Assembly (NCBI GenBank): GCA_964407245.1 | Contig: CAYOUY010000170.1 | Coordinates: 380 to 64,379, forward strand | Origin: an uncultured Acidobacteriaceae bacterium | Lineage (GTDB): Bacteria > Acidobacteriota > Terriglobia > Terriglobales > Acidobacteriaceae | Reading direction: 5' to 3' | Length of the DNA: 64,000 bases | Part shown: positions 27,652 through 56,858 of the stretch, piece by piece | Numbering within the stretch: the first letter of the stretch is position 1 | Layout of the letters: every line of letters starts with the position of its first letter | The notes under the pieces: generated by a model | The model's input: only the letters and a program-made list of their open reading frames with translations | What the model was told of the DNA's origin: nothing | Database searches by the model: none | Translations under genes and position numbers: made by a program

Positions 27652-27697
27652 TGGTCGGGGCGCGCGGATTTGAACCGCGGACCCCCTGCGCCCAAGG
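27652..27697 (-). repeat. 3' half of a tRNA-Pro gene (anticodon loop to CCA), att-like direct repeat
   Basis: tggtcggggcgCGCGGatttgaacCGCGGaccccctgcgcccaagg differs from the full tRNA-Pro at 56782 only by compensatory T-stem changes. Same orientation. Confidence 0.75.
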
Positions 27698-28010
27698 AAC
27701 GATAACCAACGCCATGTGATTGGTTCGCTTGGGTCGGCTCTGCGTCTTAAACGCTCATTTTGTGCCGTATTCGGTCGTTATTGGACCCAAATCGGACCCA
27801 AGTTTTTCACAATTTGCAGTCAAGAACGCCGACAGCATAGCCGCTAACTGGAGCGTCAACCCTACTGCGCCAGAATAGCGCCGGGCGGAGACAGCCACGA
27901 CTACCGTTCATGCAGATGAGGCCCGGAGAAGGCAACTGCCCAAAAGTGATCTCAGTCGTCCCGCTGGTAGCTGCCGCCAAATGATCATCTTCGTTGTCGC
28001 CCATGCGAAT

Positions 28011-28685
28011 CTACGACAAAAGGTGACCGCTCTTGCCGGGTTCGCCGTTGCACAGCTTGATGACGCTCGTGCGACTGGGAACTCCGGTTTTGCGCAGTAT
28101 GTGGTGTACGTGGTTCTTGACCGTCTGCTCCGAAAGGTTCAGCCGCATGGCGATTTCCTTGTTTGTGAGCCGTTCGCGCAAGAGTTCCACCATTTGCTCC
28201 TCCCGACGACTCAGCCCGAAGCCTGCTCCCCAAGAGGTTGTTACGGTCACAGGTGGCTGCTGCGCAATGCAACGGAACAGCGCCATGCCTAGAGAGGGGG
28301 GACATACCGCTTCGCCTGCTGCAACTGCCCGAATGGTAGCTGCGACTTCCAATGCCGAGGCGTCTTTTAAAACATAGCCGACGACTCCTGAGCGCACGGC
28401 CTTCAGAAATGTGTTTTCGTCGGGGTCCATGTCTATCATGACAACTCGCAGACCTCGAATCGCAGCCTGGAGAGATGAGATCAGAGTCGAGTTGGAGACG
28501 GTAAGTCCATTGGAGTCCAGCAGGATGATCTGGGGGTGGGCCGAGACGATGTCCTCGTAGGCAGTTGGCGTATAACCGCTCGCGCCGACGACACGGACCT
28601 CGTGCTTTTTGCCGAGAAGCCGAATGAGTGCTTCCCGAAGCAACCGGTTTTCTGCCAGGAGGAAAACTTCTGTTAACTTCAACAC
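28011..28685 (-). CDS. LuxR/NarL-family response regulator with atypical receiver domain
   Basis: C-terminal GerE HTH LSRREEQMVELLRERLTNKEIAMRLNLSEQTVKNHV. The receiver lacks the N-terminal acidic pair (LLAENR instead of DD). GTG start after GGTGGAG. Confidence 0.85.
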   Translation of the reverse strand: MLKLTEVFLLAENRLLREALIRLLGKKHEVRVVGASGYTPTAYEDIVSAHPQIILLDSNGLTVSNSTLISSLQAAIRGLRVVMIDMDPDENTFLKAVRSGVVGYVLKDASALEVAATIRAVAAGEAVCPPSLGMALFRCIAQQPPVTVTTSWGAGFGLSRREEQMVELLRERLTNKEIAMRLNLSEQTVKNHVHHILRKTGVPSRTSVIKLCNGEPGKSGHLLS

Positions 28686-29292
28686 ACTCCACCTATCAAT
28701 GCAGCCAGCTAAGCATTAGCGCGCCCCCTTCGCACCAATCGCTCGTTTTCCCTTAACCCCGGGATAGCCGAAGTACTCAACAACGAATAAACGAGAACTC
28801 AGGTTGGAAATGGCAATGATGAAGCTCGGTAAAACCTCCGTTTCTGATTTGAACGGGTTAAACCAACATTCTCGCGAAAAGTTGCGGGAAAAAATTTAGT
28901 GGAAATCTATCCCGCCTGTATCAAATTGAAACTCCCTCGCGGCACACAAGCTGCGCGGCCACCACATGAGTTACTTGCTGAGTCGCTTGTTACGGGTTGC
29001 GGGGCATACTAGCATGAGAGTCTGATGCAACACCAGCGCCGTAGTTTGGAAAAATTGAATGCCCTGCAGCAAGAGATTTGATCCAGCGTAGGTAAGCCCG
29101 CCCGACACCAGCCACTCAGTAGCCTGGTACCAAACCAGTACTAGCACGTGGTGCTTTGGTACTCGCGGGCATCGGCCGAACAGTACGAGATTGAGCAAGA
29201 GAGAACCCTGCACAGCCGGATCGGATTTGAACCTTGCCTGGCGCGCGATTCCGCCATATCGTACGCGAACATCCGCAAGCGGTAGGAGCACC

Positions 29293-29673
29293 ATGAAACG
29301 CGTCCGCGTCCTCGTCGCAAACAAACCTCGCTTGATGCGCGAACTCATAGTGTCAACGATTGCCGATCAGCCCGACATCGAGCTCGTCGGTGAAGTCGCG
29401 ACTGGAGAGGACCTTACTGAAGCGGTTGAACAGGCGCGGCCCGACGTTCTGATCCTCGCCATGGACGATCGTGACAAGTACAGGGTGCAGTGTGGATTCT
29501 TGCTGGGCCGCTATCCGAACATGCGAATTCTTGCCCTCGCTCCTGAGCAGAATCGAGCTCAGTTTTACTGGGCGGTCGTCGACATTCGAAGCAAGTCGCT
29601 GGAAAGTTCGGAAGCCGGAATTTTGAATGCCGTGCGGCAGAGGCCCCCTTTGGTGGGTTTGGCCCAAGTTTAG
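29293..29673 (+). CDS. stand-alone receiver-like (CheY-fold) protein, atypical
   Basis: MKRVRVLVANKPRLMRELI...PDVLILAMDD has the receiver-domain pattern without the DD pocket. GGAG RBS. Confidence 0.6.
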   Translation: MKRVRVLVANKPRLMRELIVSTIADQPDIELVGEVATGEDLTEAVEQARPDVLILAMDDRDKYRVQCGFLLGRYPNMRILALAPEQNRAQFYWAVVDIRSKSLESSEAGILNAVRQRPPLVGLAQV

Positions 29674-29784
29674 ACCGCCGGTGCCGCAAAGTCGCTCTAT
29701 GTAGTTGTAGTTAATGGGGTTAACTCACTCAGGCCCCTGTAAGTGAGGGGGCGAAGCTACGGCCAACCGGGTCAGGATCGCGGA

Positions 29785-30330
29785 ATGCTCTCATCAATCG
29801 AAGCCACGACTGAAACTCCGACAGCGATTCAGCCCTCGCAGACGGGAGCTTGGTACGCTCTCTACACCTGCCCGCGCCACGAGAAACGTGTGGCGGAGCA
29901 AATCAAGCGCCGAAGTTTTTCTTGTTTCCTGCCACTATACCGATCTGTGCGCCGATGGAAGGATCGCCGCAAAGAACTGGAGCTAGCGTTGTTTCCCGGT
30001 TATGTATTCGTTCACATGGTGCCGGAAAACCGACTACAGGTTCTGCAGGTTCCCGGCGCTGTCCGATTGGTTTCGTTCAATGGGCGTCCGGCGGCGCTGC
30101 CGGAGGAAGAGATTGAAGCACTGCGAAGCCGGTTGTCCGGCGCAGCCAGAGTCGAACCACACCCTTACTTACGCAAAGGATGCCGGGTACATGTGCGCAG
30201 CGGTCCCATGCAGGGACTGGAAGGCATCATCGTACGAAGGAAGGACTCCTGCCGTGTAGTTTTCTCCATTGATCTGATCATGCGCTCGGTGGCCGTCGAA
30301 GTAGACGAGTCCGACCTGGAAGCCGCCTAA
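29785..30330 (+). CDS. NusG-family specialised transcription antiterminator (UpxY/LoaP-like paralog)
   Basis: NGN domain WYALYTCPRHEKRVAEQI...LFPGYVFV and KOW motif GCRVHVRSGPMQGLEGIIV. It is the first gene of the polysaccharide operon. Confidence 0.85.
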   Translation: MLSSIEATTETPTAIQPSQTGAWYALYTCPRHEKRVAEQIKRRSFSCFLPLYRSVRRWKDRRKELELALFPGYVFVHMVPENRLQVLQVPGAVRLVSFNGRPAALPEEEIEALRSRLSGAARVEPHPYLRKGCRVHVRSGPMQGLEGIIVRRKDSCRVVFSIDLIMRSVAVEVDESDLEAA

Positions 30331-30358
30331 GCCAGAGTGGTCCCTTTGTGAGGTAGCC

Positions 30359-33300
30359 ATGTTATGTTTCCTTGCAGTCAGCTGCAAACGCATCGGTCCG
30401 GCCGCAGCCGTCCTGGTTCTTTGTCCATTCCTGTTCGCACAAAGCAGCGAACGAGTTCGTTCTCCGCAAAACGAATCTCAATCGCAAGCGAATCGTGCGC
30501 CTGAGTTGTCCGACCTCGCGAAAGAGAATCTGAGTCGCGTGGCCGCTTCATCGCCAGAAATAAAGGCAGTCCTGGTCAGGGACCCGGGGCTTCTCGTGGA
30601 GTTAAAGCGCTGGGTGGCGAAAGAAGCCACCGACAATGGGCAAGTTGTGCGAGACTCGAACCTTTCTGACCAGGCAATTTTCGATCGTCTCGATCAGGAC
30701 GTGGCATTTCGTTCCGTCGCTACCCGACTCTTGCAACGATACGGGTATCTGCTGCCGCAGCCCAATCCCGAATCAAGCTTCGCCAAAGAGGAAGACCTCG
30801 TTTTGAAGGAACGGGCACGGCGATTGGTGCAAATCGAGGCACAGGAAGACAGTGAGGCGTTGCAGCAGAAAAAGAACGAACAACAGCAAGGAGAACTGGC
30901 TCGCACCAGCGGTTGCAATTCAGAACAGGTAGACCAGGAAGACAACTGCGAGAGATCTCGCCCGCCAGCGCGCGGATCCAATCAGCAACTTCAGAATCAG
31001 GCGCCGGCCTACGAGGGGCCGGTTCCGAACACAAATCCGCAATACATACCCGAAATGCCCCCTTCGCTAATCACGCCTCGAGTGCTGACGACCGACCTTT
31101 CGAATGAAGGAACGAGCCAGAGTAGCCTGGCGTCTTCGGCGGGAATGCTCGAGATGGCCTCGGGTTCGTCACGGTTGGGCGGCGGCAGCACCGATTCTCT
31201 ATTCGGTTCTCAGGTTGGCTCTCAGGGGATGTCGCCCTCCGTTTTGAGCGACTTGCTCGCCGCACGAAGCAACAGTTCCGGCAATGACGTTCTGGCCACA
31301 CGCGAAGCTTCCGCAAGTAGCCTTAATTCCAGCAGATCCGTGCGATCAAACTGGAATCGGCCACGGTTCAGGGAACGCCAGGAAGACACGTCTCCGGTGA
31401 AGATGGTGCGCCCTGCGAATCCGTATGCTGACGTTCCTTCCCTATATGACATGTACATCCAAGCTTCCGCCAAGCAGCGCCCGGTGGAGCGCTTTGGACT
31501 CGATATATTCCGCAATAGCGACAATGACCTCGACGTGATCCCCATGGATCTGCCGGTCGGACCGGACTATGTCGTTGGAACGGGCGATAGTCTTTCGATC
31601 GATCTGTGGGGAAGCGTTTCTCAAAGACTGGTGCGACTGGTCGATCGTGAAGGCCGAATCGCTTTGCCCGAGACCAGTCCGCTTCTGGTAACCGGCAAGA
31701 GCCTTGCAGAGGTTCAGTTGGAAGTTCAGCATGCCCTGCGATCCGCATTTCGCGATGTATCCGCGGATGTCTCGGTTTCACGGCTGCGTACCGTTCGTGT
31801 CTACGTCGTGGGAGAAGTTGTGGCACCCGGGGCCTACGACATCAGCTCACTTTCGACTCCGCTCAATGCCCTGTTCGTCGCGGGAGGCGTCAAAGCACAG
31901 GGGTCGTTGCGCTCGCTGAAGCACTTCCGCGGTAAGCAGCTGATCGAGGAAGTGGACGCTTACGACCTGTTGCTGCACGGTATCCGCTCCGATCTGAAGC
32001 GACTGGAAAACGGAGACACTTTACTGGTCCCGCCTATCGGCCCGCAGGCCACTGTGGAAGGAATGGTGCGCCGCCCCGCGATTTACGAACTGCTGGATGA
32101 GCATTCGCTGGCCGAGGTCTTGGAACTTGGGGGCGGAATCTTGCCCACGGCAGCGCTTCGCCACATTGAGGTGCAGCGGCTTGAGGCCCATGAGAAGCGG
32201 ACCATGCTGACGCTGGATCTCACGCCTACCACCAATACTGATCAACTCAACAAGCAGTTGGAAGCGTTCAAGATACAAGACGGCGATCAGGTGCACATTT
32301 TCCCCATCGCCTCGTACAACGAGGACGCGATCTACCTTGAAGGGCACGTGCTGCGCCCGGGGCGCTATTCGTACAAGGAAGGCATGAAGGTGACGGACCT
32401 GATCTCGTCGTACAACGACTTACTGCCTGAACCTGCGCCGCACTATGCCGAGATCATCCGCCTGAACGCTCCGGATTTTCATCCCACAGTTGAGAGCTTC
32501 GATATTTCCTCCGCCTTGGCGAATCCAGCCACGGCGCCGGCTCTGAAGGCTCTGGACACAGTGCGAATCTTCAGCCGCTATGATTTCGAGCCGCCGCCAG
32601 ACGTGTGGGTAGGCGGTGAGGTGCACAAGCCGGGGTCCTACCGCACCTCGGGTCAGGCGCATCTGCGCGATGCCGTGTATCTGGCTGGCGGAATTACTCC
32701 GGATGCATCGCTGGATTCTGCTCAATTGTTCCGCACGCAGGCTGACGGGACGATGAAGATTCTGAGCGTTGATTTGCAGGAGGCCCTGGCTGGAAACCCC
32801 GTGGACAACATTGTCCTTCAGCCCCGCGATCGACTGTTGATTCATCGCACTCTGGCCAAAGTGGATGCTCCTACGGTTGACATCAAAGGCGAAGTCGCGA
32901 AGCCCGGGCGCTATCCACTAACCACCAATATGCGCGTCGATGACCTGGTTCGCGTCGCCGGCGGACTGAAGCGAAGCGCGTTTGCAGACAGCGCTGATCT
33001 GACGCGCTTTGCCGCCGGTAGCGGCTCCAATGAGCGACTCGAAGTGAAGCTTTCGGCTGCCCTTGCCGGAGATGTGAATGAGAACGTCCCGTTGCGCAAT
33101 GGCGACGTTCTCGCCATCCGGCAAATCCCCCAGTGGAATGATCTGGGATCGTCGGTCACAGTAAAGGGAGAAGTTCAGAACCCTGCCTCGTACGGGATTG
33201 AGCCGGGCGAGCGCCTGAGTTCGCTCCTGAAACGCTGCAATGGATTCACACCGGAAGCCTACCCCTACGGCGCCGTCCTGCTCCGTCAGGAAGTGCGGGA

Positions 33301-33907
33301 TCTGGAAATGAAGTCGCACCTGGAATTGGTCAATCGCCTCAAAACCGAGCAGGGCTACTTGAAAACGTTGCCGGAAGGCGACGGCGACCAAAAAGAAGCA
33401 AAGCTTACCGCCATCGCTCAGACCCAGACCGCGCTTGAGCAACTCGAGGCGACAGCGCCGGTGGGCCGAGTCGTGATTCACATTCCTCCGGATCTCAAAC
33501 ACTTGGCCAAGACGCCAGCCGATATACCTCTGCGCGACGGCGACGTTCTCATTATTCCCAAGAAGACGAACTACGTGGTGGTGAGCGGCGAGGTTTTCCA
33601 TCCCACGGCTGTCAGCTATATACCGGGCAGGAGTGCGAAGTGGTACTTGAGCCAGTCTGGCGGTTTGACGCAAATTGCAGATCGCAGCGCCATGTTTGTT
33701 GTGCGGGCGGATGGTTCTGTACTAGCGGCAAAGAACAATTCCGGACTCTGGGCCGGCGATCCGATGAACGCCGTTCTAAAGCCGGGGGATTCGATCGTTG
33801 TGCCCGAAAAGGCGCCGAAGGTTGCTCCTCGGAACTTCACGACACTGATCCAGGCCGCCCAGGTTGCGTCTTCTGTAGCCCTGACGGTCGCCTACATCCA
33901 TCCCTAA
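30359..33907 (+). CDS. polysaccharide export protein (Poly_export plus multiple SLBB domains) with a long low-complexity N-terminal extension
   Basis: Signal peptide. PVGPDYVVGTGDSLSIDLWG...VRVYVVGEV Wza-like core followed by repeated SLBB-like units (GDVLIIPKK, GDSIVVPEK). Confidence 0.88.
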   Translation: MLCFLAVSCKRIGPAAAVLVLCPFLFAQSSERVRSPQNESQSQANRAPELSDLAKENLSRVAASSPEIKAVLVRDPGLLVELKRWVAKEATDNGQVVRDSNLSDQAIFDRLDQDVAFRSVATRLLQRYGYLLPQPNPESSFAKEEDLVLKERARRLVQIEAQEDSEALQQKKNEQQQGELARTSGCNSEQVDQEDNCERSRPPARGSNQQLQNQAPAYEGPVPNTNPQYIPEMPPSLITPRVLTTDLSNEGTSQSSLASSAGMLEMASGSSRLGGGSTDSLFGSQVGSQGMSPSVLSDLLAARSNSSGNDVLATREASASSLNSSRSVRSNWNRPRFRERQEDTSPVKMVRPANPYADVPSLYDMYIQASAKQRPVERFGLDIFRNSDNDLDVIPMDLPVGPDYVVGTGDSLSIDLWGSVSQRLVRLVDREGRIALPETSPLLVTGKSLAEVQLEVQHALRSAFRDVSADVSVSRLRTVRVYVVGEVVAPGAYDISSLSTPLNALFVAGGVKAQGSLRSLKHFRGKQLIEEVDAYDLLLHGIRSDLKRLENGDTLLVPPIGPQATVEGMVRRPAIYELLDEHSLAEVLELGGGILPTAALRHIEVQRLEAHEKRTMLTLDLTPTTNTDQLNKQLEAFKIQDGDQVHIFPIASYNEDAIYLEGHVLRPGRYSYKEGMKVTDLISSYNDLLPEPAPHYAEIIRLNAPDFHPTVESFDISSALANPATAPALKALDTVRIFSRYDFEPPPDVWVGGEVHKPGSYRTSGQAHLRDAVYLAGGITPDASLDSAQLFRTQADGTMKILSVDLQEALAGNPVDNIVLQPRDRLLIHRTLAKVDAPTVDIKGEVAKPGRYPLTTNMRVDDLVRVAGGLKRSAFADSADLTRFAAGSGSNERLEVKLSAALAGDVNENVPLRNGDVLAIRQIPQWNDLGSSVTVKGEVQNPASYGIEPGERLSSLLKRCNGFTPEAYPYGAVLLRQEVRDLEMKSHLELVNRLKTEQGYLKTLPEGDGDQKEAKLTAIAQTQTALEQLEATAPVGRVVIHIPPDLKHLAKTPADIPLRDGDVLIIPKKTNYVVVSGEVFHPTAVSYIPGRSAKWYLSQSGGLTQIADRSAMFVVRADGSVLAAKNNSGLWAGDPMNAVLKPGDSIVVPEKAPKVAPRNFTTLIQAAQVASSVALTVAYIHP

Positions 33908-33932
33908 CGGCGGGATTGAACAATTGCCGAAA

Positions 33933-36467: not shown

Positions 36468-36517
36468 AGAACTCATCTCTGCGAATCAGTTGAGCACACT
36501 TCGCGGAAAGGATTGAC

Positions 36518-37891: not shown

Positions 37892-37916
37892 AGACCTCAA
37901 GATTCTTAGCCTCAAA

Positions 37917-39485: not shown

Positions 39486-39497
39486 ACGAGGCCTCCC

Positions 39498-40313: not shown

Positions 40314-40322
40314 CCCAAAGTT

Positions 40323-41129: not shown

Positions 41130-41156
41130 GGGTGTTCACCAGGTTTCGGAGCTTGC

Positions 41157-42455: not shown

Positions 42456-42464
42456 CTCCCCAGG

Positions 42465-43718: not shown

Positions 43719-43749
43719 TGGTGCAATCTCCCTGGACTTCTGAGGGGCT

Positions 43750-45623: not shown

Positions 45624-45690
45624 GGCTTTTCAAAAATACGGATACTAGTCGCGGGAAGTAACCTGTTCTGAGTTCACGAAAGGCCTGACT

Positions 45691-47016: not shown

Positions 47017-47019
47017 AAA

Positions 47020-47712
47020 ATGGCTCAACTGAGTGCAGTTTCCCCCGGAAGCGGGACTGAGGCGCTCGATCAAAGCAGGTGGGTGGTGTTGTCGCCCCGT
47101 TGGCGCAGTCCAATCCGTCTGGCTATCAAGAGATCGCTTGATATTACGGTTTCGGCCGTCCTGCTATTACTGCTGTCCCCAATTCTCCTGGTGCTGGCAA
47201 TCGCAGTGAAATTCAGTTCTCCCGGACCGCTGTTCTACCGCTGGAAGGTTGTGGGTCGCGGCGGGCGACCGTTCACCGGCTACAAGTTTCGTTCGATGGT
47301 CGCGAACGCAGACGCACTTCGCGAGCAACTAACGCGTCATAACGAAATGACCGGCCCCGTCTTTAAGATGTCGCGCGATCCACGCATTACACGAGTAGGC
47401 GCGTGGTTCAGAAAATACAGTCTCGATGAGCTACCCCAGCTGTTCAATGTGCTCAAAGGCGATATGAGTTTAGTAGGTCCACGGCCTCCGCTGGTCACGG
47501 AGTACGCCCAGTTCAGCGCATACCAGAAACAGAAGCTGGCGGTGAAGCCCGGGATTACTTGCTTGTGGCAGGTGCACGGCCGAAATCAGATCAGCGATTT
47601 TGATGAGTGGGTACGGCTCGATCTGGAATACATCGCCCGATGGTCTCTCTCGCTTGACTGTGCCATTCTGGCGCGGACATTGGGAGCGGTTTTATCGGGT
47701 ACGGGTAAGTAA
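47020..47712 (+). CDS. small monotopic phosphoglycosyl transferase (bacterial sugar transferase family)
   Basis: [21 protein letters not shown]...KFRSM...[37 protein letters not shown]. Confidence 0.9.
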
Positions 47713-47755
47713 CGCACACTAGGAATTTTGAAACGAACCTTAGGGAGTTAAGAAA

Positions 47756-48751: not shown

Positions 48752-48789
48752 GAAACGAAAAAACTGCCCACGAGAGGAGTCTAATAACA

Positions 48790-49902
48790 ATGCGCGTTCT
48801 TGTGACTGGTGGCGCCGGGTTCATTGGCAGCCATCTCGTTGATCGTTTTCACGCCGAAGGCTTTGAAGTTCGAGTCTTGGATAACCTCGATCCCAAAGTT
48901 CATCCGAGTGGCGAGCCCCCGCATTTCCCGCGCGGTGTGGAGTTCATCCGCGGCGACATAACTGACCGCGAGACCCTCCGCTATGCCCTGCGCAACGTGG
49001 ACATTGTTTCTCATCAAGCGGCCTACCAGGACTACATGCCCGATTTTTCCCGATTCCTGGCTGTGAACGCAGTCGGCACAGCGCTGCTCTACGAATTGAT
49101 CGTGGAAGAACGCATGAAGATTCGAAAAGTAATTGTGGCATCTTCTCAGGCGGTTTATGGCGAAGGACAGTACGTGTGCCAGCAGCACGGCCCATTCCTT
49201 CCCATTCCTCGCAGCGCGCAACAATTGCAGCGAGGAGAATGGGAAGTAGTCTGCCCGGACTGCGGCCAACGGGCCACTCCGGCCTTGCTGGTGGAAGAGC
49301 GCACAAACCCCTATAACCAATATGCCGTGTCCAAACTTGCACAGGAGAAAACGGCCCTGGGACTGGGATGGATCCGCGGGATTCCGACCGTTGCTCTCCG
49401 CTACTCGATTACTCAAGGACCTCGCCAATCGCTATTCAACCACTACTCGGGAGTCTGCCGGATTTTCGTCAGCCGCGCCCTGACTGGTGATCCGCTGGTT
49501 ATCTACGAAGACGGGCTCCAGACACGTGATTTCGTGCATATCAATGATGTGGTGAACGCCAACATGCTGGTGCTTGAAAAAGATGCAGCCGATGCGCGGG
49601 CGTTTAATGTCGGGAGCGGGCAACCGACCTCAGTAGTCGAATATGCGCGGCACGTTCGCGAAAAAATCGGGAATGACGTTGAGCTCTGCATCCCTGGAGA
49701 GTATCGCAGCGGCGACAACCGCCATAGCGTGTCATCGATTGCGAAGCTGCGCGGTTTGGGATGGGCCCCGCAGCGGAACCTTTCGGACATTCTCGACGAT
49801 TTTTTGAACTGGGTGGAAACAATCGGCGGCATTCCCGAGCAAGTGCAAGACGCCTACTCGCACATGAAAGAAGCCGGCGTAGTGCTGGCTGCAGGACAAT
49901 AA
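48790..49902 (+). CDS. NAD-dependent epimerase/dehydratase with Cys/His-rich insertion
   Basis: MRVLVTGGAGFIGSHLV, YAVSK (YxxxK), and an insert GQYVCQQHG...VVCPDCG after the SSQAVYG strand. Confidence 0.85.
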   Translation: MRVLVTGGAGFIGSHLVDRFHAEGFEVRVLDNLDPKVHPSGEPPHFPRGVEFIRGDITDRETLRYALRNVDIVSHQAAYQDYMPDFSRFLAVNAVGTALLYELIVEERMKIRKVIVASSQAVYGEGQYVCQQHGPFLPIPRSAQQLQRGEWEVVCPDCGQRATPALLVEERTNPYNQYAVSKLAQEKTALGLGWIRGIPTVALRYSITQGPRQSLFNHYSGVCRIFVSRALTGDPLVIYEDGLQTRDFVHINDVVNANMLVLEKDAADARAFNVGSGQPTSVVEYARHVREKIGNDVELCIPGEYRSGDNRHSVSSIAKLRGLGWAPQRNLSDILDDFLNWVETIGGIPEQVQDAYSHMKEAGVVLAAGQ

Positions 49903-49965
49903 CTCATACCTGATACTCCTTTCCGCTCTCGCACTTCAACAATCCACTGTCGGGGTTACCCATAC

Positions 49966-50619
49966 ATGAGTACCGTGCCGAGTCAGCGAGGCAGCGATCC
50001 CGCGCACTCGCATCTTGCGTCTCTTCCGATCACTCGCTCGGAGAACTACTTCCTGAGTGTCGAAGCTGTTCTCAAACGCCTTCCATTTGCACTGATCGAC
50101 CGCGTGACGGAGGCATTGTGGCGCGCATACCTTGAGTCTCGAACGGTCTTCGTGTTTGGGAACGGCGGAAGCGCTGCGTTGGCTTCCCATTGCGCGTGCG
50201 ACCTTGGCAAAGGCACTGTGCACAACGGGAATCGACGCCTGCGCGTGATCGCGCTGACTGACAACGTTCCGCTCATGACCGCATGGGCCAACGACGCCAG
50301 CTACGACGACATTTTTGCTGAGCAACTGATGCCGTTGATCCATAAAGCCGATATCGCACTTGCCATCAGCGGGAGCGGAAATTCGCCCAATGTGTTGAAA
50401 GCTCTTCAAGTAGCGCGCGAAGCTGAGGCTTTCACGATCGGGCTCACGGGCTTTCAAGGCGGCAAGATGAGGGCCTTGTGCGACCTGTGTGTCGTCGTGC
50501 CCTCGGATAATATGCAAATCATCGAGGATTTGCATGTCTCCGTGAGTCACTCAGTTTTTACTTCCTTGCGATCTCGGATCTGTACAGCCGCTCAAGACTT
50601 GATCCGCCGACAGGCGTAA
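49966..50619 (+). CDS. gmhA: SIS-domain sedoheptulose-7-phosphate isomerase
   Basis: VFVFGNGGSAALASHCACDL...ALAISGSGNSPNVLKAL...GLTGFQGGKM. Confidence 0.82.
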   Translation: MSTVPSQRGSDPAHSHLASLPITRSENYFLSVEAVLKRLPFALIDRVTEALWRAYLESRTVFVFGNGGSAALASHCACDLGKGTVHNGNRRLRVIALTDNVPLMTAWANDASYDDIFAEQLMPLIHKADIALAISGSGNSPNVLKALQVAREAEAFTIGLTGFQGGKMRALCDLCVVVPSDNMQIIEDLHVSVSHSVFTSLRSRICTAAQDLIRRQA

Positions 50620-50648
50620 CGATCTTCCCGGAATGTCGAAAACATTCG

Positions 50649-52088
50649 ATGACAGCTCGCACTCTGCGTAATAGCATCCTCACGGCCGATCTGGTTTGGG
50701 GAGTGCTGGCCATGCCCATCGCATATCTGATGCGATACGGTTGGGTTTGGCACGGCCCGACGGATCGGTCCGCCGCAATCTTTATTCCCCCGCTCATGAC
50801 CGCCCTGTTGGTCTGGAGCGTAATGTCGTCCTGGGTACGGCTTGACGGCTTTCGGACAGGATGGATGTTCTCGGCGGTGGTTTCCCAGCTCCTGCTCGCT
50901 GTTCTTGGCGTAATGCTTGCCCTGTTTGCGATCGGCTACCTGCTGCGGGAGTTTATTTCTCGCTTGGCACTCGGATATTTTGGCCTGTTGCTATTCCTGG
51001 GTTTTCTGACCATCCGGGTCATCGCTCGATTAATCCTGGCTGCGCCTCGCGCGCGGGCAGCGGTTCGCAATGTAGTGATCGTGGGCAACGGACCTTTAGC
51101 CCGCGAGATGGCCAACAAGATCGAGTCTCATCCGGAAATGCTCCGCAAAGTGGTCGGTTTTCTAAGCCCGGGCGAGGATTCCTTCCCAACTGTTTCGCTG
51201 GCAAATCGCGCTAATGCCGTACCTCTTCGAACTGCGGATGTCGCGCAGATACTCAAATCCCACGCGGTGGATGAAGTAATTCTGACCGTGCCGGCACCCG
51301 GACGACCAGAGATCCTGGATCTTATTTCGCGGTGTAGCCGTGTGGGCATCGAAATCGGCATGGTGCCGCAACCATACGAACTATATCTCACGAAACCCGC
51401 GCTGATGGATCTCGATGGTCTTCCCTTGCTGCAGCTGCCGGTTGACCCTTCAGCAGAGGGCGATCCCAAGTGGAAGCGCGTGTTCGATGTGGGCATGACA
51501 CTCGTCTTGCTACCGGTGTGCGTTCCGCCGACGCTCGTCGCAGCCGCTCTTCTTAAGCTCAGGAAAGGACGAGCTTTCTGCACTGAGTGGCGTTGCGGGA
51601 AACATGGCGAGAAATTTGCGATCTACCGTCTAAATTCGCCGCGTCGCGCGTTCGGGCTGCCCGCTTACGAACGACTGTTCCAGAAACTCAGCATTACAGA
51701 GCTACCGCAGCTGTTCAACGTCCTGCGGGGCGAGATGAGCCTCGTCGGACCCCGCCCGGAGGGCCTCGACCGAGCACGGCACTACACCGACTGGCATCGC
51801 CAAAGGCTGAATGCGATACCCGGCATGACCGGCCTGGCGCAAGTTTATGGACTGCGAGATCAGCACCCGTCGGAGGACAAGACGAGGTACGATCTGCAGT
51901 ACATTCTCCATCGTTCGCTCTTTCAAGACATCTCCCTGTTGGTCCAGACCGCATGGACCCTCACGATGCGGCTGTTCGATGGTCTTGGTGGGGAGTCCAC
52001 CCGAGACAAGGCCGCAGATGGAACACCCGAAATAGATTTCGAGGAAAACCTCATCCATGCTCATAGTTCGCAGCCCAGTGCGGATTAG
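50649..52088 (+). CDS. large polyprenyl glycosylphosphotransferase (WbaP/WcaJ-type, TM plus Rossmann-like plus catalytic domain)
   Basis: N-terminal TM helices, VVIVGNGPLAREMANKI, and a C-terminal catalytic domain with [20 protein letters not shown]. Confidence 0.85.
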   Translation: MTARTLRNSILTADLVWGVLAMPIAYLMRYGWVWHGPTDRSAAIFIPPLMTALLVWSVMSSWVRLDGFRTGWMFSAVVSQLLLAVLGVMLALFAIGYLLREFISRLALGYFGLLLFLGFLTIRVIARLILAAPRARAAVRNVVIVGNGPLAREMANKIESHPEMLRKVVGFLSPGEDSFPTVSLANRANAVPLRTADVAQILKSHAVDEVILTVPAPGRPEILDLISRCSRVGIEIGMVPQPYELYLTKPALMDLDGLPLLQLPVDPSAEGDPKWKRVFDVGMTLVLLPVCVPPTLVAAALLKLRKGRAFCTEWRCGKHGEKFAIYRLNSPRRAFGLPAYERLFQKLSITELPQLFNVLRGEMSLVGPRPEGLDRARHYTDWHRQRLNAIPGMTGLAQVYGLRDQHPSEDKTRYDLQYILHRSLFQDISLLVQTAWTLTMRLFDGLGGESTRDKAADGTPEIDFEENLIHAHSSQPSAD

Positions 52089-53142
52089 TTTTGGCGGCGG
52101 TGGCACCGATTTGCCGGCTTACTACGAGCAATTCGGCGGCTCCGTTCTAAGCGTTGCTATTAACAAGTACTTTTACACGGTTCTCAGCGGGCGTTCCGAT
52201 GGTCGGATTCAGGTAATTTCCTCTGACCTCAGAGTATTCGAAACTTGGCATGACATCGCCAACACGAATTTTCGCGGCAGCTCATTGGAAATCCCCCTCG
52301 CCGTTCTGAAAGAGATGAATTGTGATATCGCCGTCGATCTGTTCCTGGCTTCCGAAATTCCGCCCGGCACGGGTCTCGGCTCCTCCGCCAGCGTGTGCGT
52401 TAACATTCTCAAGACGCTGTGTACCTACCTGCAGCAGCCGATTTCCAAATATGATCTCGCTGAACGCTCCTTCCACATTGCGCGGGATCTTCTCGGAAAA
52501 CACGTCGGGAAGCAGGATGAATACGCGGCTGCCTTTGGAGGGCTCAACTTCATTTCGTTCCACCCCGATGGAAGCGCACTGGTAGAGCCTATCGACTTGA
52601 ACCCGGCAGTATTAACGGAGTTCCAGCGGAACCTCATGCTTTTTTTCACTGGTTCCTCTCACCATTCTTGGAGCATTCTAAAGGAGCAAGAAGCTTCCGC
52701 ACGAAACCAAACCGGAACCGCCATCGAAGCTCTGCACGAAGTGAAAGCCCTGGGCATTCGCATGAAGACCGTTCTTCAGCAAGGAGATCTCAAGGAGCTA
52801 GGCACGTTGCTTCACGAAGGATGGCGGGCAAAGCGACGCATCTCGTCGAAAATTTCGACGCCGCGTATCGACGAACTCTACGCTCAAGCCCGTCAGCACG
52901 GTGCGCTAGGGGGCAAGATCACGGGGGCCGGCGGCGGAGGTTTCCTGCTTCTCTACTGCGAACCTGAATTTCAATCTGCCGTCCGAGAGGCGATGCGGCA
53001 AAATGACGTCCACGAAATGACCTTTGCATTTGATATGCAGGGCGCACAAGTAATTGCAAACGATCCTTTCATCGATGGGGACGAACGCGGTGGTTGCACT
53101 TGGACCTTTTTGCCGAGAGTTCCGGCGACGCCTGTCTTCTAG
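52057..53142 (+). CDS. hddA: GHMP kinase, D-glycero-alpha-D-manno-heptose-7-phosphate kinase-like
   Basis: MLIVRSPVRISFGGGGTDLPAYY N-terminus, PPGTGLGSSASV motif and GGKITGAGGGGF. Overlaps the previous gene by 32 nt. Confidence 0.82.
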   Translation: MLIVRSPVRISFGGGGTDLPAYYEQFGGSVLSVAINKYFYTVLSGRSDGRIQVISSDLRVFETWHDIANTNFRGSSLEIPLAVLKEMNCDIAVDLFLASEIPPGTGLGSSASVCVNILKTLCTYLQQPISKYDLAERSFHIARDLLGKHVGKQDEYAAAFGGLNFISFHPDGSALVEPIDLNPAVLTEFQRNLMLFFTGSSHHSWSILKEQEASARNQTGTAIEALHEVKALGIRMKTVLQQGDLKELGTLLHEGWRAKRRISSKISTPRIDELYAQARQHGALGGKITGAGGGGFLLLYCEPEFQSAVREAMRQNDVHEMTFAFDMQGAQVIANDPFIDGDERGGCTWTFLPRVPATPVF

Positions 53143-53168
53143 TTCTCTATCTCGTATTCCAAACCCCA

Positions 53169-53864
53169 ATGAAAGCCTTCCTCTTGGCCGCGGGCAACGG
53201 CACTCGACTGCGGCCCATCACTAACACCCTACCCAAGTGTCTTGTCCCTATTAAGGGCGAGCCTATGCTGGCGATTTGGCTGCGACTTTGCCAGAACCTC
53301 GGCATCACCGAGGTTTTGATTAACGTTCACGCCCACGCGGACACAGTACTAGCGTTTCTGCGGCAGAGCCGACCGAGCGGCATCCGGGTGCACTTGGCAG
53401 AAGAGAAGCAGTTGCTGGGCAGCGCGGGAACATTGCGAGCGAATCGCAGCTGGGTCGAAAGTGAGGATCTGTTCTGGGTCTTTTACGCGGACGTGTTGCA
53501 CCGTGCCGATCTCCACGCGATGTTGCGCCTGCACCGCCAGCAGGGCTTGGCGGCTACCCTCGGCGTCTATGAGGTTCCCGACCCTTCGCGCTGCGGCATT
53601 GTGACGACCAACGGCGATGGAGTAATCGAAGCCTTTGTCGAGAAGCCTGCGCATCCCACCAGTAATCTGGCGTTTTCGGGTCTGATGATCGGGACGCGTG
53701 CCGTTCTGGATGCGATCCCGAACGACATTCCGGCGGACATCGGATTTCATGCCCTTCCCAAACTTACAGGTCGGATGCTTGCGTTTCCGATACGCGATTA
53801 CTTGATCGACGTGGGCACCTTGGAGAACTACCAGCATGCCCAAGCCACATGGCCTGGGCTATAG
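53169..53864 (+). CDS. hddC: sugar-1-phosphate nucleotidyltransferase (heptose-1-phosphate guanylyltransferase-like)
   Basis: MKAFLLAAGNGTRLRPITNTLPKCLVPI NTP-transferase signature. Confidence 0.82.
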   Translation: MKAFLLAAGNGTRLRPITNTLPKCLVPIKGEPMLAIWLRLCQNLGITEVLINVHAHADTVLAFLRQSRPSGIRVHLAEEKQLLGSAGTLRANRSWVESEDLFWVFYADVLHRADLHAMLRLHRQQGLAATLGVYEVPDPSRCGIVTTNGDGVIEAFVEKPAHPTSNLAFSGLMIGTRAVLDAIPNDIPADIGFHALPKLTGRMLAFPIRDYLIDVGTLENYQHAQATWPGL

Positions 53865-53876
53865 GACGATCTGCAA

Positions 53877-54584
53877 ATGCGTGATGGCATCTTGCGCGGG
53901 ATTGTTTTCGACCTGGACGGAGTCATAGTCGACAGTCATCCCATACACAAACGGGCCTGGCGAGCTTTTCTTGCCAGTGTGGGCCGCGAGGTGTCGGAAT
54001 CGGATCTCGACTTTATTCTCGAGGGTCGCAGACGGCAAGAAATCCTGGTCCACTTTCTTGGCGACCTTTCTGAGTCCGAGGTTTGGGACTACGGCGACCT
54101 AAAGGACGAGTTCTTTCGGCAATTTTCTGCGGCACCCGAACCGGTTACCGGAAGCATTGAGTTCATCAACAGCCTGGAGAACACGGGCCTTCGTCTTGCG
54201 GTAGCTACATCAGCCAGCCGACAACGTGCTCGATGGACGCTTGAGCAGCTCAGGATCATGCACCATTTCGAACTACTAGTTACCGGGGAAGACGTCGCAC
54301 AATGCAAGCCAGACCCAGCTATTTACAAGTTGGCCGCGCAGCGTCTTTCCATTGCCCCACAATGCGTTCTCGGCATTGAGGACTCGGTCTGTGGAGTTCG
54401 TTCGGCGAAGGCAGCGGGACTACGCTGTCTTGGAGTCGGGTTCGGAAAGAGTGCATGTCAATTGCTGGCTGCCGGGGCAGACTGTGTGTTCGCAAACCTG
54501 GCGGGCCTGACAATGCGACAGGTGGATGAAGCGCTCAGAGCCTATGCGCTTGCTAAGGCGATTCCGGCAGACCCGCTGTGCTGA
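53877..54584 (+). CDS. HAD-superfamily phosphatase (subfamily IA, beta-PGM-like)
   Basis: IVFDLDGVIVDS (DxDG), ATSA, and EDSVCGVRSAKAAG motif IV. Confidence 0.8.
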   Translation: MRDGILRGIVFDLDGVIVDSHPIHKRAWRAFLASVGREVSESDLDFILEGRRRQEILVHFLGDLSESEVWDYGDLKDEFFRQFSAAPEPVTGSIEFINSLENTGLRLAVATSASRQRARWTLEQLRIMHHFELLVTGEDVAQCKPDPAIYKLAAQRLSIAPQCVLGIEDSVCGVRSAKAAGLRCLGVGFGKSACQLLAAGADCVFANLAGLTMRQVDEALRAYALAKAIPADPLC

Positions 54585-54677
54585 TCGCCGTACTCGTATC
54601 AGTCGTGATTGACTCTTACCGGCTCCCGATTCTCCGACGAAAAATCTTGGTTCGCGGAGAAGGAAAATTCTCCTTTC

Positions 54678-55700
54678 ATGGAAATCCAGTTGTTGGTAGT
54701 CCTTGCGGTTTTTCTTCTTATAACTATACCGGTTCAGGCGCAATGTGGTCTGAGCCTCTTGGATTGTATTCATGAAAGTAGCGCCGAGACAGATCCGCGA
54801 AACGCCCCTGGCAGACGCGATCTTGGAATTGGGCCCAGTTTCGATGCTCCGCTTGCGGCAACATTCGGCGAAACGAATACGGCTACCCCAGCAACCGAGA
54901 GCCTGCTTTCGGACTCTTCCGCTATTCCTGTCTTCATATGCGTAGTGGGAGCTCGCTCCCCCGACTCGGTCTCTACCGAATTGTTCCGTAGCCCAAGCAA
55001 CTTTCACGCCGAGCCGATGTCAGATGCGGAGCAGGCGGGCGGTGACGCAAGAGCGCCGTCAATTGCAAAAGTGCGGCCCACTAAACCAGTCGAATTCAAC
55101 CAAGCGGTCTATTACAAAAATAAGCTCGAACTCGGCCTGGACTTCGGAGTTCTCCCAATCAACATTCCATTCGTCTTTGACGTTTTCTTGGGCGACGCCT
55201 ATCACATGACACCTCTTCATTACACGTTGATGCCAATCATTGGCTCCCTGCGCTGGCACGTGGACGATGTGGGAGGACCATCGATTCTTCGTGGTAACTG
55301 GGATCTGCAGGCCAGCTTAGCTGTGACCTTGATCCCCAGAGGACCGGAATCACGCTATTTCGCGTTTATTTTGGGTTTCCGACGGAATTTCGTCCCGCGC
55401 CACGGAAAGTTCGCTCCCTATTTTGACGGCCGTGTAGGGCTTGGCGAGATTGACGCTCAGGAGCCGTTAGGCGCCGTTTGGGCGCAAGGACAGGACTTCA
55501 CGTTCACGCTCAACATGGGCAGCGGATTTCGATATAACATCAGTCCCAGCCGTTCGATCTCATTCGGTATCAATTGGATGCACATATCGAACCTCTATCT
55601 GTCCCAGCCGAAATATCCGGATTATGGGATTAACGTGTACGGGCCCATGATTGGAGTCGACATCCGATTGGGCAAGCATCACCCAGATGCGGCGCAGTAG
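54678..55700 (+). CDS. outer-membrane acyloxyacyl hydrolase / lipid A 3-O-deacylase (PagL)-like protein
   Basis: Signal peptide MEIQLLVVLAVFLLITIPVQAQ, a beta-barrel-like C-terminal half with WMHISNLY (HxSN) and a terminal aromatic-rich strand. Confidence 0.5.
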   Translation: MEIQLLVVLAVFLLITIPVQAQCGLSLLDCIHESSAETDPRNAPGRRDLGIGPSFDAPLAATFGETNTATPATESLLSDSSAIPVFICVVGARSPDSVSTELFRSPSNFHAEPMSDAEQAGGDARAPSIAKVRPTKPVEFNQAVYYKNKLELGLDFGVLPINIPFVFDVFLGDAYHMTPLHYTLMPIIGSLRWHVDDVGGPSILRGNWDLQASLAVTLIPRGPESRYFAFILGFRRNFVPRHGKFAPYFDGRVGLGEIDAQEPLGAVWAQGQDFTFTLNMGSGFRYNISPSRSISFGINWMHISNLYLSQPKYPDYGINVYGPMIGVDIRLGKHHPDAAQ

Positions 55701-56449
55701 TTCTTAAATCCAGCCGTTTTGCTGCGCCTGTAGATTATCCCGCCGGGCCACTCAGTCCTTCCTCCCACCAGTTGCGGCATCTCACAGGATCCTCCCTCTT
55801 CTTCCCGCCCACCCGAGCAGTTCGTCCCTCCACTAGAAAAAGACCGAATGAACGATTTACCTGCTGTGTTAGCGGGAGGACAACTCTCTCGGCTCCCCAG
55901 GTCTTACAATTCAGCGTCAACGGCCTGCATCGATATCCATGCTGGCGTACAGAAAGATGGCTCACCAGCGAGAGGCGTTCGCGCCGATGAGCCGAAAGTA
56001 AGGAGCCAAATCTTGATAGGAGTGGATGCTAGGCCTGCACTGTGGGCGCAGTCAAGAGCTTAGTATTGCAAAACGAACACAATCAAACCAACCCGATTTT
56101 GCCAGTCGCTTCCGCTACGCACTCCAGATTTAAGCGCACTCTCGGGTTTTCCTTGGCGAGAAAGCTCCCACTAATGGAGTAAGCAGCTTGACGGCCAGTT
56201 TCGCTGCACCCGGCGCGTTGACGGTTCCCGCATTTCTCTTCGGGACCTACTCGGGCACGAAGTGTCCGCATTAGCTCCAGAGCCTGTAAGCTAGGGGTGC
56301 TTCGGGAGAACCAAGGGTGCGGGAAACTGCGAATTTCGTCTACAAACGGTTCACGATTCGTCAATTCGCAGATCATTTGCTGGAAATTGAGCAATTTCTT
56401 GTTGAATGAACAATCGCCTTCGAAGAACGAAGAACTCTGAGCGAAGGCA

Positions 56450-56665
56450 GTGCTTACGCCAGTGCGGCTGCGGCTGCTACTAGCCCGCTTGCCAGAGCCG
56501 TCTCGTTCGCTGCGGCTGCTCCTGATCCTCACTGGAATGCGAATCGGCGAGCTGCTGGCCTTGCGCTGGCGCAATGCCGATCTCGAAAGCAAGCTCGTTC
56601 GCGTGGAAGAAACTGTCTACGACGGGCACTTCGATGAACCCAAGAGCATCGAAGCCAGAGGATAA
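56450..56665 (+). pseudogene. tyrosine recombinase (integrase) fragment
   Basis: LLLILTGMRIGELLALRWRNADLE is the box-I Arg region only. The HxxR and Tyr regions are missing. Upstream frames (about 56100-56450) hold frameshifted integrase-like scraps. Confidence 0.65.
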
Positions 56666-56669
56666 AGAT

Positions 56670-56713
56670 TGGTCGGGGCCCGCGGATTTGAACTCCTGAC
56701 CCCTGCGCGCAAG
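56670..56713 (-). repeat. second, decayed copy of the tRNA-Pro 3' half
   Basis: tggtcggggcccgcggatttgaactcctgacccctgcgcgcaag. The T-stem halves no longer pair. It lies 68 bp from the intact tRNA in the same orientation. Confidence 0.65.
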
Positions 56714-56781
56714 TTCCGCCCGCTGGCGAAATCCTGAACGAAGTGAAGGAGCCCTCGGGATGGAAGCCAGAGGATGAAGAA

Positions 56782-56858
56782 TGGTCGGGGCGAGGAGATT
56801 TGAACTCCTGACCCCCTGCGCCCAAGGCAGGTGCGCTACCAGGCTGCGCTACGCCCCG
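56782..56858 (-). tRNA. tRNA-Pro (anticodon TGG)
   Basis: The reverse complement folds as a cloverleaf: CGGGGCG acceptor, GCGCAGCCTGGTAGCGC D-arm, anticodon loop CTTGGGC, T-loop GGTCAGGAGTTCAAATCTCCT, encoded CCA. Confidence 0.93.

Follow-up and report, generated by a model that had tools for sequence, protein, structure and literature searches.

A probable tRNA-Pro-integrated genomic island filled by a Wzx/Wzy-type polysaccharide locus in an uncultured Acidobacteriaceae bacterium

The small, self-transmissible pSAM2 of Streptomyces ambofaciens, an element that carries int, xis and rep/tra genes, targets tRNA-Pro; the identity segment of its attachment site (att) begins at the anticodon loop and includes the 3' end of the gene. 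Among well-known surface polysaccharide loci, kps of Escherichia coli is an ABC-transporter-type capsule locus, and in the capsular polysaccharide loci of Bacteroides an UpxY antiterminator heads a long operon encoded on one strand. The principle behind the Islander catalogue is that a regenerated tRNA gene (tDNA) and a displaced fragment of it mark the two ends of an island, with att classes that include anticodon-loop and T-stem-region types (PMC4383910). In E. coli GI-pheV islands the repeat comprises the last 19–23 nt of the tRNA and a P4-type integrase is conserved beside it, and islands lacking good repeats or an integrase are stabilised in the chromosome (PMC11537424). Here we analyse a stretch of 64,000 nt (hereafter the window) from an uncultured peat bacterium of the Acidobacteriaceae (GCA_964407245.1, contig CAYOUY010000170.1), in which the 29,084 bp between positions 27698 and 56781 are best explained as a tRNA-integrated genomic island, a reading to which we assign an overall probability of about 0.72.

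The island is like Islander-type islands (Hudson, Lau & Williams 2015; Williams 2002 classes) in that an intact tDNA is accompanied by a 3' fragment of it in the same orientation. Its repeat likewise runs from the anticodon loop to CCA, as in att sublocation class 'A', in which the island supplies the replacement 3' part, and the tRNA gene is likewise a hot spot with different occupants in relatives. It differs in having no intact integrase, so that a filter based on integrases would reject it, in a cargo that consists of one 27-kb polysaccharide locus and almost no genes for mobility or backbone functions, and in an extra, hybrid inner att scar. The likeness to pSAM2 rests on the target and on the extent of the att segment, as none of the int, xis and rep/tra genes of that element occurs in this island. 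As in Bacteroides, an UpxY-family NusG paralog heads a long one-strand operon; the island, from a different phylum, has neither invertible promoters nor UpxZ. The E. coli GI-pheV/kps region likewise ties a polysaccharide locus to a tRNA-linked modular island with imperfect flanking repeats (PMC11537424), but there kps lies beside the island, whereas here a Wzx/Wzy locus fills it, the repeat measures 46 nt and the integrase is dead.

Probable displaced tRNA half, flanks and element arm

An intact tRNA-Pro(TGG) gene lies on the minus strand at 56782–56858, one of three tRNA genes that ARAGORN called in the window; the Rfam tRNA model agrees (65.7 bits), and the gene is identical to the tRNAs of L002 and L157 (genomes and contigs used for comparison are cited by L numbers). 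Its 3' 46 nt, the proximal att copy (56782–56827, minus strand; T stem AGGAG/CTCCT), recur in the same orientation at 27652–27697 on the minus strand as a displaced tRNA-Pro(TGG) 3' half, the distal att copy (attR core), with the T stem CGCGG/CCGCG. The repeated block corresponds to tRNA positions 32–77, from one base before the anticodon loop to CCA, and similarity between tRNA and fragment ends sharply at both of its edges. A previous reading of the letters alone (the sequence-only reading) had placed both the gene and the recurring 3' half at exactly these coordinates, counting 36 of 46 matches, ten differences in the T-stem strands and a fragment stem that paired in part. Base-by-base comparison on the minus strand gives 40 of 46 identical positions. 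The differences do lie in the T stem but number six, three in the change from AGGAG to CGCGG and three in that from CTCCT to CCGCG, and they form three compensated pairs that leave the T stem of the fragment fully paired (5/5 Watson–Crick). Derivation of the fragment from a different tRNA-Pro copy, also proposed in that reading, did not hold up, since the fragment is identical at 46/46 positions to the allele of the same gene in 17 related genomes. A chance origin of the repeat is excluded: BLAST within the window returns E = 2e-7, an nhmmer profile recovers the distal fragment at E = 6e-14, and a pattern degenerate in the T stem had 0 matches in 100 shuffles.

Repeats that start at the anticodon loop and reach the 3' end are also found in L157, L031 and L179. 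The 45–46-nt block in L031 lies at tRNA-Pro(GGG), and in L179, an IMG/VR contig, tRNA and fragment again differ solely in the T arm. As a side observation, three contigs from at least two samples (L168, L169, L170) carry CGCCGCGACCA in place of CGCCCCGACCA in the tRNA, at the equivalent of window 56778–56790; this variant produces a G:G mismatch in the acceptor stem of the putatively element-supplied 3' half.

The native left flank is formed by a gene for a bacterial alpha-2-macroglobulin (A2M; 1789 aa, 22237–27606, plus strand; Pfam MG2/A2M/TED/A2M_recep). Used as a query against 185,579 species genomes, this protein returned 80 loci, by which the window is assigned to the Acidobacteriota, within the Candidatus Sulfotelmatobacter / Terriglobales group. 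The closest relative found, L002, is a Ca. Sulfotelmatobacter metagenome-assembled genome (MAG; JASHPH01, isolate JOPF044) and the only locus informative for synteny around A2M, the other 79 of the 80 sharing no neighbours with the window. Its A2M is 90% identical at the amino acid level, a Ser/Thr kinase gene lies upstream in both genomes, and a complete tRNA-Pro(TGG) abuts A2M exactly where the window has the fragment. The interval between A2M and the fragment (27607–27651, minus strand), the native tRNA-Pro trailer, is homologous to the 3' flank of the L002 tRNA, including the string CTTCTGC(A/C)CCAAC. Because the intact tRNA of L002 sits on this homologous trailer, the whole tRNA would have abutted A2M in the ancestor, and some 29.1 kb would have been inserted between tRNA positions 31 and 32 or, alternatively, lost from L002. 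Five of the A2M loci (L003, L046, L059, L070, L073), at 62–80% identity, bear the labels of Verrucomicrobiia, Actinomycetota or Dormiibacterota MAGs; they are probably mis-binned contigs, since the A2M family otherwise tracks the Acidobacteriota.

The native right flank comprises, on the plus strand, the genes for a 2'-5' RNA-ligase-family protein (LigT; 57053–57598) and UDP-glucose dehydrogenase (Ugd; 57851–59119), both identified with Pfam. A metagenome scan with the LigT-like protein as query yielded another 80 loci, about 40 of which keep the order tRNA-Pro (minus strand), LigT, Ugd, tRNA-His, tRNA-Arg. The 5' flank of tRNA-Pro, with its TATAAT box, is conserved, while the 3' flank varies from locus to locus, and all of the roughly 40 relatives with conserved order lack both extracellular polysaccharide (EPS) genes and A2M at the tRNA-Pro/LigT side. 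The empty tRNA-Pro site for which the sequence-only reading had proposed to compare related genomes was seen only in separate parts, not as one continuous site: L002 has the tRNA on the A2M trailer, and adjacency to LigT is seen only in the other relatives. Independent contigs reproduce both junctions of the island. A JGI contig (L162) covers window 20359–42714 at 99.98% identity and spans the left junction; on the right, the ENA contig L170 covers 54278–56848 and shares an overlap with L168, a contig of the same sample that extends into LigT, and L169 reproduces this junction as well. The genes for Wza, the PagL-like protein, the integrase stump and Ugd all lie on one contig of 150,236 nt. 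Farther right, tRNA-His and tRNA-Arg are 3.3 kb apart in the window (59895–63187), as against 15–120 nt in most relatives and 0.9–1.7 kb in a few (L122, L161, L156); the gap holds genes for a DUF1801 protein, a class I methyltransferase and an Lnt-like apolipoprotein N-acyltransferase, all on the minus strand.

Adjoining the fragment on the island side is an arm (27698–27805, minus strand) with two TTGGGTCC repeats (27783–27801) spaced 11 nt apart and the inverted repeat AACCAA/TTGGTT (~27704–27725). The same 108-nt arm, again with TTGGGTCC repeats, lies beside the fragment of an island in L157 whose cargo is unrelated. Homology between window and L157 begins at AAACTTGGGTCC and ends one base past CCA; the arms are ~80% identical and the fragments identical at 45 of 46 positions, a contrast that would be expected of an arm carried by diverging elements beside a fragment of a host gene under strong constraint. 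The arm is absent from L176, a contig with a related polysaccharide locus, and its pattern had no match in IMG/VR. Taken with the intact tRNA of L002 and the flank shared by about 40 relatives, the L157 island upholds the proposal of the sequence-only reading that an element integrated site-specifically into the 3' half of tRNA-Pro, and from these comparisons insertion by site-specific recombination appears likely.

Several further loci document other occupants of the tRNA-Pro site. In L082 (1–405), L095, L130 and L139, tRNA-Pro(TGG) is intact only up to about positions 42–50; no regenerated 3' half was found nearby, and ARAGORN called no tRNA. The tRNA of L082 breaks after position 42, and an integrase gene (MFEQFIKERQF...) follows ~75 nt on in the orientation of the tRNA. 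A second family of occupants (L102, L117, L124, L126, L132, L138) shares a 3' flank in which an anticodon-arm-like CACCTGCCTTGGAGG precedes an integrase start (ATG.TTGAGCAGTT), and this flank occurs with both GTAGG and CGCGG alleles of the tRNA. In L101 (506–1374), the gene immediately 3' of tRNA-Pro encodes a homologue (68% aa) of the LuxR regulator of the island, in an orientation relative to the tRNA opposite to that in the window; tRNA and homologue are separated by a flank that contains TTGGGTCC and is homologous to the flank next to the tRNA in L157.

T-stem alleles and the half of the tRNA that may be foreign

To place the two T-stem variants, the tRNA-Pro(TGG) genes of L082–L161, L002 and the window (56782–56858) were compared, from hosts whose LigT proteins differ by 12–30% aa. 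These 43 copies are identical except in the T stem, which occurs in three discrete compensated alleles with no intermediates: GTAGG/CCTAT in 22 copies, CGCGG/CCGCG, the form of the window fragment, in 17, and AGGAG/CTCCT in the window, L002 and L157. The search for tRNA-Pro genes with a T stem matching the fragment, suggested by the sequence-only reading, was accordingly productive. The allele tracks the LigT tree, with agreement between 36 of 41 nearest neighbours, and for both the window and L157 the nearest LigT neighbours in the metagenome set have CGCGG, which is also the allele of the displaced fragments.

The clearest case is L157: its tRNA is of the AGGAG type, a CGCGG-type fragment with one mutation lies 6.7 kb downstream, and in its nearest relatives (L154/L156, with LigT 90% identical at the nucleotide level) the intact gene is of the CGCGG type. 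Six substitutions that all fall within the ten T-stem bases would hardly be credible as in-place evolution over the distance between L157 and L154/L156, which would mean that the AGGAG 3' half came with the island and that the CGCGG fragment is the displaced half of the host gene. We consider it probable, on the strength of these allele comparisons, that the window has the same composition: the fragment would be the displaced host 3' half, and the working tRNA would join a host 5' part to an element 3' part.

The mechanism we propose is an exchange, catalysed by a tyrosine recombinase, between an incoming DNA and tRNA-Pro(TGG) at the anticodon loop or close to it, where the repeat has its 5' edge. 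The incoming DNA would have brought a copy of the tRNA's 3'-terminal 46 nt (AGGAG/CTCCT) with it, which would now complete the working gene, and the original 3' half of the host (CGCGG/CCGCG) would have been pushed 29 kb away, still attached to its native trailer beside A2M. An inner att copy and an integrase stump near the tRNA, described below, would be old scars within a composite element that integrated as a whole. We infer the position of strand exchange from the distribution of alleles, and the allele of L002 together with the hybrid form of the inner copy urges caution on this point. A crossover purely in the T loop was considered but rejected, since the working tRNA should then be a CGCGG/CTCCT hybrid, and this was not seen.

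A complete polysaccharide locus as cargo

A locus that runs from a LuxR-type regulator to a PagL-like protein fills the island and leaves only att and integrase remnants of 0.3 kb and 1.1 kb at the two ends; all genes of the locus are on the plus strand except the first. That gene encodes a LuxR/GerE-type response regulator (28011–28685, minus strand; Pfam GerE, Response_reg) and is 84% identical at the nucleotide level to its counterpart in L176. It is followed by genes for a small receiver-like protein (126 aa, 29293–29673; weak Response_reg match, gene also called in L162/L163/L176) and for the UpxY-family NusG paralog, a predicted operon-specific antiterminator (29743–30330; Pfam NusG) that passes the NCBIfam model antiterm_UpxY NF033644 with 122.5 bits against a cut-off of 100. 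The export and assembly functions come next: a Wza-type outer-membrane polysaccharide export protein of 1182 aa (30359–33907; Pfam Poly_export, SLBB, SLBB_2, with repeated SLBB), a PAP2 phosphatase-Wzi fusion (33924–36467; Pfam PAP2, Caps_assemb_Wzi), a Wzz/PCP chain-length determinant of 457 aa (36518–37891; Pfam Wzz, GNVR) and a Wzx-type flippase (37824–39485; Pfam Polysacc_synt, Polysacc_synt_3). The centre of the locus encodes a first FkbM methyltransferase (39498–40313; Pfam Methyltransf_21), a GT2 glycosyltransferase (40323–41129; Glycos_transf_2), a Wzy-type polymerase or O-antigen-ligase-like membrane protein (41157–42455; Wzy_C at E = 3.8e-7, just under the cut-off), a GT4 glycosyltransferase (42465–43718; Glycos_transf_1), a second FkbM methyltransferase (43750–44595; Methyltransf_21) and a NAD-dependent epimerase/dehydratase (44562–45623; Epimerase).

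The remainder begins with a second GT4 glycosyltransferase (45691–47016; Glyco_trans_4_4, Glycos_transf_1; 85% aa identity in L177) and a small phosphoglycosyl transferase (47020–47712; Bac_transf at E = 6e-66, NCBIfam EPS_sugtrans 292 bits). Two NAD-dependent sugar epimerase/dehydratases (47756–48751 and 48790–49902; Epimerase, GDP_Man_Dehyd), which share 93% and 91% aa identity with proteins of L177, precede a GmhA-like SIS-domain isomerase (49966–50619; SIS_2) and a large phosphoglycosyl transferase (50649–52088; CoA_binding_3 plus Bac_transf, NCBIfam EPS_sugtrans). An HddA-like GHMP kinase, a nucleotidyl transferase and a HAD phosphatase (52057–54584; Pfam), in a gene order conserved in L172, L173 and L177, lead to the last gene, for a PagL-like outer-membrane acyl hydrolase (54678–55700; PagL, 25.5 bits). 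This protein has 1856 homologues, of which the next best is merely 60% identical.

The Wzx/Wzy set is complete, with two phosphoglycosyl transferases (Bac_transf), Wzx, Wzy (Wzy_C just under its cut-off), Wzz and Wza. No Wzc-type tyrosine kinase or Wzb phosphatase was found, as the Wzz protein has no kinase domain and the island no open reading frame (ORF) for a kinase or low-molecular-weight phosphatase. The sequence-only reading had listed Wza, Wzi, Wzz, Wzx, Wzy, the NusG paralog, two phosphoglycosyl and three glycosyltransferases, two FkbM methyltransferases and a PagL-like protein, all of which Pfam and NCBIfam confirm. Its GDP-heptose pathway fared less well: a sugar-nucleotide module of that architecture is present, but all four enzymes fall below the cut-offs. 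In NCBIfam the heptose enzymes score under the equivalog thresholds (gmhA 111 of 209 bits, HddA 207 of 600, HddC 60 of 300) and the HAD protein matches beta-phosphoglucomutase-type families, so that the module would merely resemble the architecture of the GDP-D-glycero-D-manno-heptose pathway (GmhA/HddA/GmhB/HddC). Among the ~25 island ORFs scanned, no Pfam family for a relaxase, a type IV secretion system, or virion or packaging functions was matched; because transfer and virion genes are lacking, the island is neither an integrative and conjugative element nor a prophage.

Composition shifts at the island boundaries. The GC content is 0.563 inside and 0.597 outside, GC at third codon positions is mostly 0.56–0.68 inside (one epimerase gene reaches 0.77) and 0.74–0.77 outside, and tetranucleotide distance is 100 inside versus 76 outside (Mann–Whitney p = 3e-5). 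The lower GC that the sequence-only reading had noticed in parts of the island is borne out. Relatives of the cargo occur in a different setting. The best is an 86.8-kb JGI contig (L176/L177) with a LuxR-to-PagL locus whose end modules are 84–85% identical at the nucleotide level; homology covers window 28042–37850 and 46270–55675, with a short break at 28676–29180, and the central 37851–46269 has no nucleotide match, the central genes being different there. The right-hand module (epimerase, SIS, phosphoglycosyl transferase, GHMP kinase, nucleotidyl transferase, HAD, PagL) is also syntenic in L172 and L173. On the JGI contig the locus is bordered by TPR, HEAT and GT2 genes on one side and by tRNA-Ser(GGA), PilZ, TldD/PmbA, KdsA and PyrG on the other. 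Arm, tRNA-Pro fragment and integrase are all missing from this locus, and no tRNA-Ser repeat was found at its far end; in L177 the PagL-like gene is followed by a 124-aa ORF and then by tRNA-Ser(GGA) (11768–11857) on the opposite strand.

A homologous locus at another chromosomal site without att repeats does not refute insertion in the window. Because it occupies an ordinary chromosomal site in a relative, the cargo is, judging from gene content and synteny, probably a resident-type locus of a related acidobacterium that was captured between the ends of a tRNA-Pro-targeting element. The description of everything between the repeats as accessory-type must accordingly be narrowed: it is apt for the insertion at this site, but not for the clade, in which loci of this type are common, given Wza homologues at 93, 88 and 81% and the L176/L177 locus.

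Inner att copy, competing histories and significance

A third, decayed att copy of 45 nt is located at 56669–56713 (minus strand; nhmmer E = 1.6e-8, BLAST E = 3e-11 including flank), 68 nt from the tRNA and three bases past the stop codon of the integrase stump. It shows a change in the anticodon loop and a 1-nt deletion, and its T stem is a hybrid, with the 5' strand AGGAG of the tRNA and the 3' strand CCGCG of the distal fragment. Over 22 nt, the sequence past this copy is similar to that past the tRNA. Comparison with contig L165 divides the 68-nt spacer between tRNA and third copy (56714–56781, minus strand) into a part common to that contig (56714–56750) and a part specific to the tRNA-Pro(TGG) junction (56751–56781). 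With nhmmer, no further att copy was found in the window beyond these three and none inside the 29 kb, so the polysaccharide locus is not subdivided by att scars. The claim that an entire capsule/EPS system was acquired as one integrative element therefore holds as far as a single block free of internal att copies is concerned, while arrival of the whole locus in one step is the simplest reading, which we favour with less assurance than the insertion itself.

The integrase remnant that the sequence-only reading had noticed at the tRNA-proximal end is real. It comprises 74 codons (56441–56665, plus strand), scores 29 bits with Pfam Phage_integrase, above the cut-off, and covers positions 21–60 of the 172 of this profile (PF00589), with the box I Arg only; neither box II nor the catalytic Tyr of a complete R..K..HxxR..Y domain was found in the stump or anywhere nearby. 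The stump reads toward the tRNA and ends after ...DEPKS, where homologues continue PKS-RHSVRLIPLGP, being cut at the third att copy. The island is thus immobilised, its only recombinase being a stump cut by an older, decayed att scar. An SSV-type split integrase was rejected, as 27698–28010 contains no recombinase-like ORF. Between locus and stump, 55701–56440 is a decayed non-coding stretch with only short ORFs without family matches and no similarity in L176/L177, and no intact gene lies between 55701 and 56781. Homologues of the stump led to no intact element, the word-sharing relatives all being short ORFs (71–130 aa) or decayed, and a regular-expression search of the 80 metagenome loci found essentially no intact integrases adjoining tRNA-Pro. 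Of the stump relatives (P0122–P0128), that in L171 (7560–8100) is a frameshifted pseudogene with box II still readable, and several others lie on contigs of 1.3–4.6 kb and hence may be just truncated; together they suggest a family of decaying integrases in peat Acidobacteria.

Several observations weigh against a simple integration of this island at tRNA-Pro(TGG). The compositional shift is modest and typical of polysaccharide loci generally, and Wza, with thousands of homologues in a smooth identity series (93, 88, 81, 80%), is as conserved among relatives as the flanking genes. A Pfam scan of the island ORFs detected no functional integrase, excisionase, conjugation or phage gene, and the stump need not be the enzyme behind the outer repeats and may belong to another event. 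Because the contig of L002 stops 3 nt past the tRNA, no single sequence shows the 'empty' site together with its LigT side. The AGGAG allele of L002, which has no island at that site, further obliges the favoured model to assume that an element integrated there earlier and was then lost, the recombination falling 3' of the T stem; nor does a pure anticodon-loop model predict the hybrid T stem seen in the third att copy. Finally, the ENA contig L165 (ERZ27251253 k141_879602) is 100% identical to window 52328–56750 (4.4 kb), from the end of the GHMP kinase gene through the nucleotidyl transferase, HAD and PagL-like genes to the stump, the third att copy and 37 nt of spacer, and then continues with 25 different bases and a complete tRNA-Pro(GGG), upstream of which lies a hairpin resembling that of the chromosomal tRNA-Pro(GGG) of L031. 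One and the same island end is thus found beside tRNA-Pro(TGG) and beside tRNA-Pro(GGG), and simple integration of the same element fails to explain the L165 junction. This contig is itself a mosaic, with 14 mismatches in its first 170 nt.

How these points are accommodated depends on the history assumed. A possible, though less probable, account is stepwise build-up by at least two integrations at a regenerated tRNA (tandem accretion) with internal deletions, in which the locus and the arm would derive from one element and the stump, the third att copy and the spacer would be the remains of others. Three att copies of which the inner is decayed and chimeric, an integrase cut exactly at that copy, and the homology of the 22 nt after the tRNA with those after the inner copy are all consistent with such a sequence of events, and tandem arrays have been described (PMC4383910). 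Under tandem accretion, however, the distal copy should be the oldest, yet it matches a live allele at 46/46 positions and it is the inner copy that has decayed; between the locus and the distal arm, moreover, there is no att copy. This reversed order of decay suggests instead that the inner copy and stump were old scars within a composite element.

Somewhat unlikely, in our estimation, is that the island predates the split between the window and L002, was inherited vertically here rather than acquired recently, and was lost in L002 by repeat recombination 3' of the T stem. The element-type AGGAG allele shared by L002 would follow, the similarity of the repeats for ~20 nt past CCA (CTTCTGC(A/C)CCAAC) offers a substrate for the deletion, and the integrase is long dead. 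Great age sits poorly, however, with a distal fragment that has no mutation relative to the live allele and with a compositional shift that is still visible.

We regard as doubtful a crossover located at the tRNA's 3' end, within the 3' strand of the acceptor stem or immediately beyond it; this is also the alternative account of the L002 allele. AGGAG/CTCCT would then be native, and the CGCGG 46-mer would belong to the element arm and never have been part of this host's gene. L002 would need no lost island to carry AGGAG, and three att copies including a hybrid would require no extra events; the homology of window and L157 does stop one base after CCA, and the junctions of L165 and the window diverge 25–31 nt 3' of the tRNA genes. 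On the other hand, the same triple compensated change would have to arise independently in L157 and in the lineage of the window and L002, both against CGCGG relatives. The start of the repeat exactly at the anticodon loop would also go unexplained, as would the conservation of the 46-mer at 98–100% beside an arm at ~80%.

Less likely again is that the locus is a still-circulating 'passenger' without an integrase of its own, moved in trans by the integrases of other elements between tRNA-Pro(TGG) and tRNA-Pro(GGG). If this were true, each visit would overwrite the T arm of the host tRNA, the three T-stem alleles would be footprints of island traffic, and whole capsule-type loci would be exchanged as cassettes among peat Acidobacteria. 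Rearrangement within the genome, by which a resident locus moved between tRNA-Pro(GGG) and tRNA-Pro(TGG) via relic elements at both, seems improbable. It could draw on L165, where the identical island end joins a chromosomal-looking tRNA-Pro(GGG) with a hairpin as in L031, and on a Wza conserved like a core gene, but the GGG configuration is known from one junction only, the window has at its left junction a clean tRNA-Pro(TGG) fragment joined to the native trailer, and an intragenomic move would still need the same att machinery. An artefact, whether similarity by chance or an assembly chimera formed at a conserved tRNA, is negligible as an explanation: tRNA genes are classic break and join points, and the contigs of L002, L163, L168 and L169 do end at the tRNA, but the repeat is far beyond chance in the shuffles and with nhmmer, and a chimera is rejected by the independent contigs across the left (L162) and right (L170 with L168) junctions and by the single 150-kb contig that holds all parts.

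Integration into tRNA-Pro(TGG) thus remains our preferred history of the island. The mechanism is textbook, and the value of the case lies in a well-documented example, not in a new principle. Acidobacteria dominate acidic soils and peat, and a role in soil aggregation, desiccation tolerance, and resistance to phages or predators is ascribed to their extracellular polysaccharides. To our knowledge, movement of acidobacterial polysaccharide loci between genomes has been little documented, because most of these genomes are fragmented MAGs. Noteworthy here are a Wzx/Wzy system as sole passenger, the host phylum, the replacement of the tRNA T arm and the alternative junction at tRNA-Pro(GGG). The T-stem allele of tRNA-Pro together with the TTGGGTCC arm offers a practical marker for such islands in metagenomes, and the island provides direct structural evidence that, in the Acidobacteriota, an entire surface-polysaccharide system is relocatable as one block by tRNA-targeting recombination.

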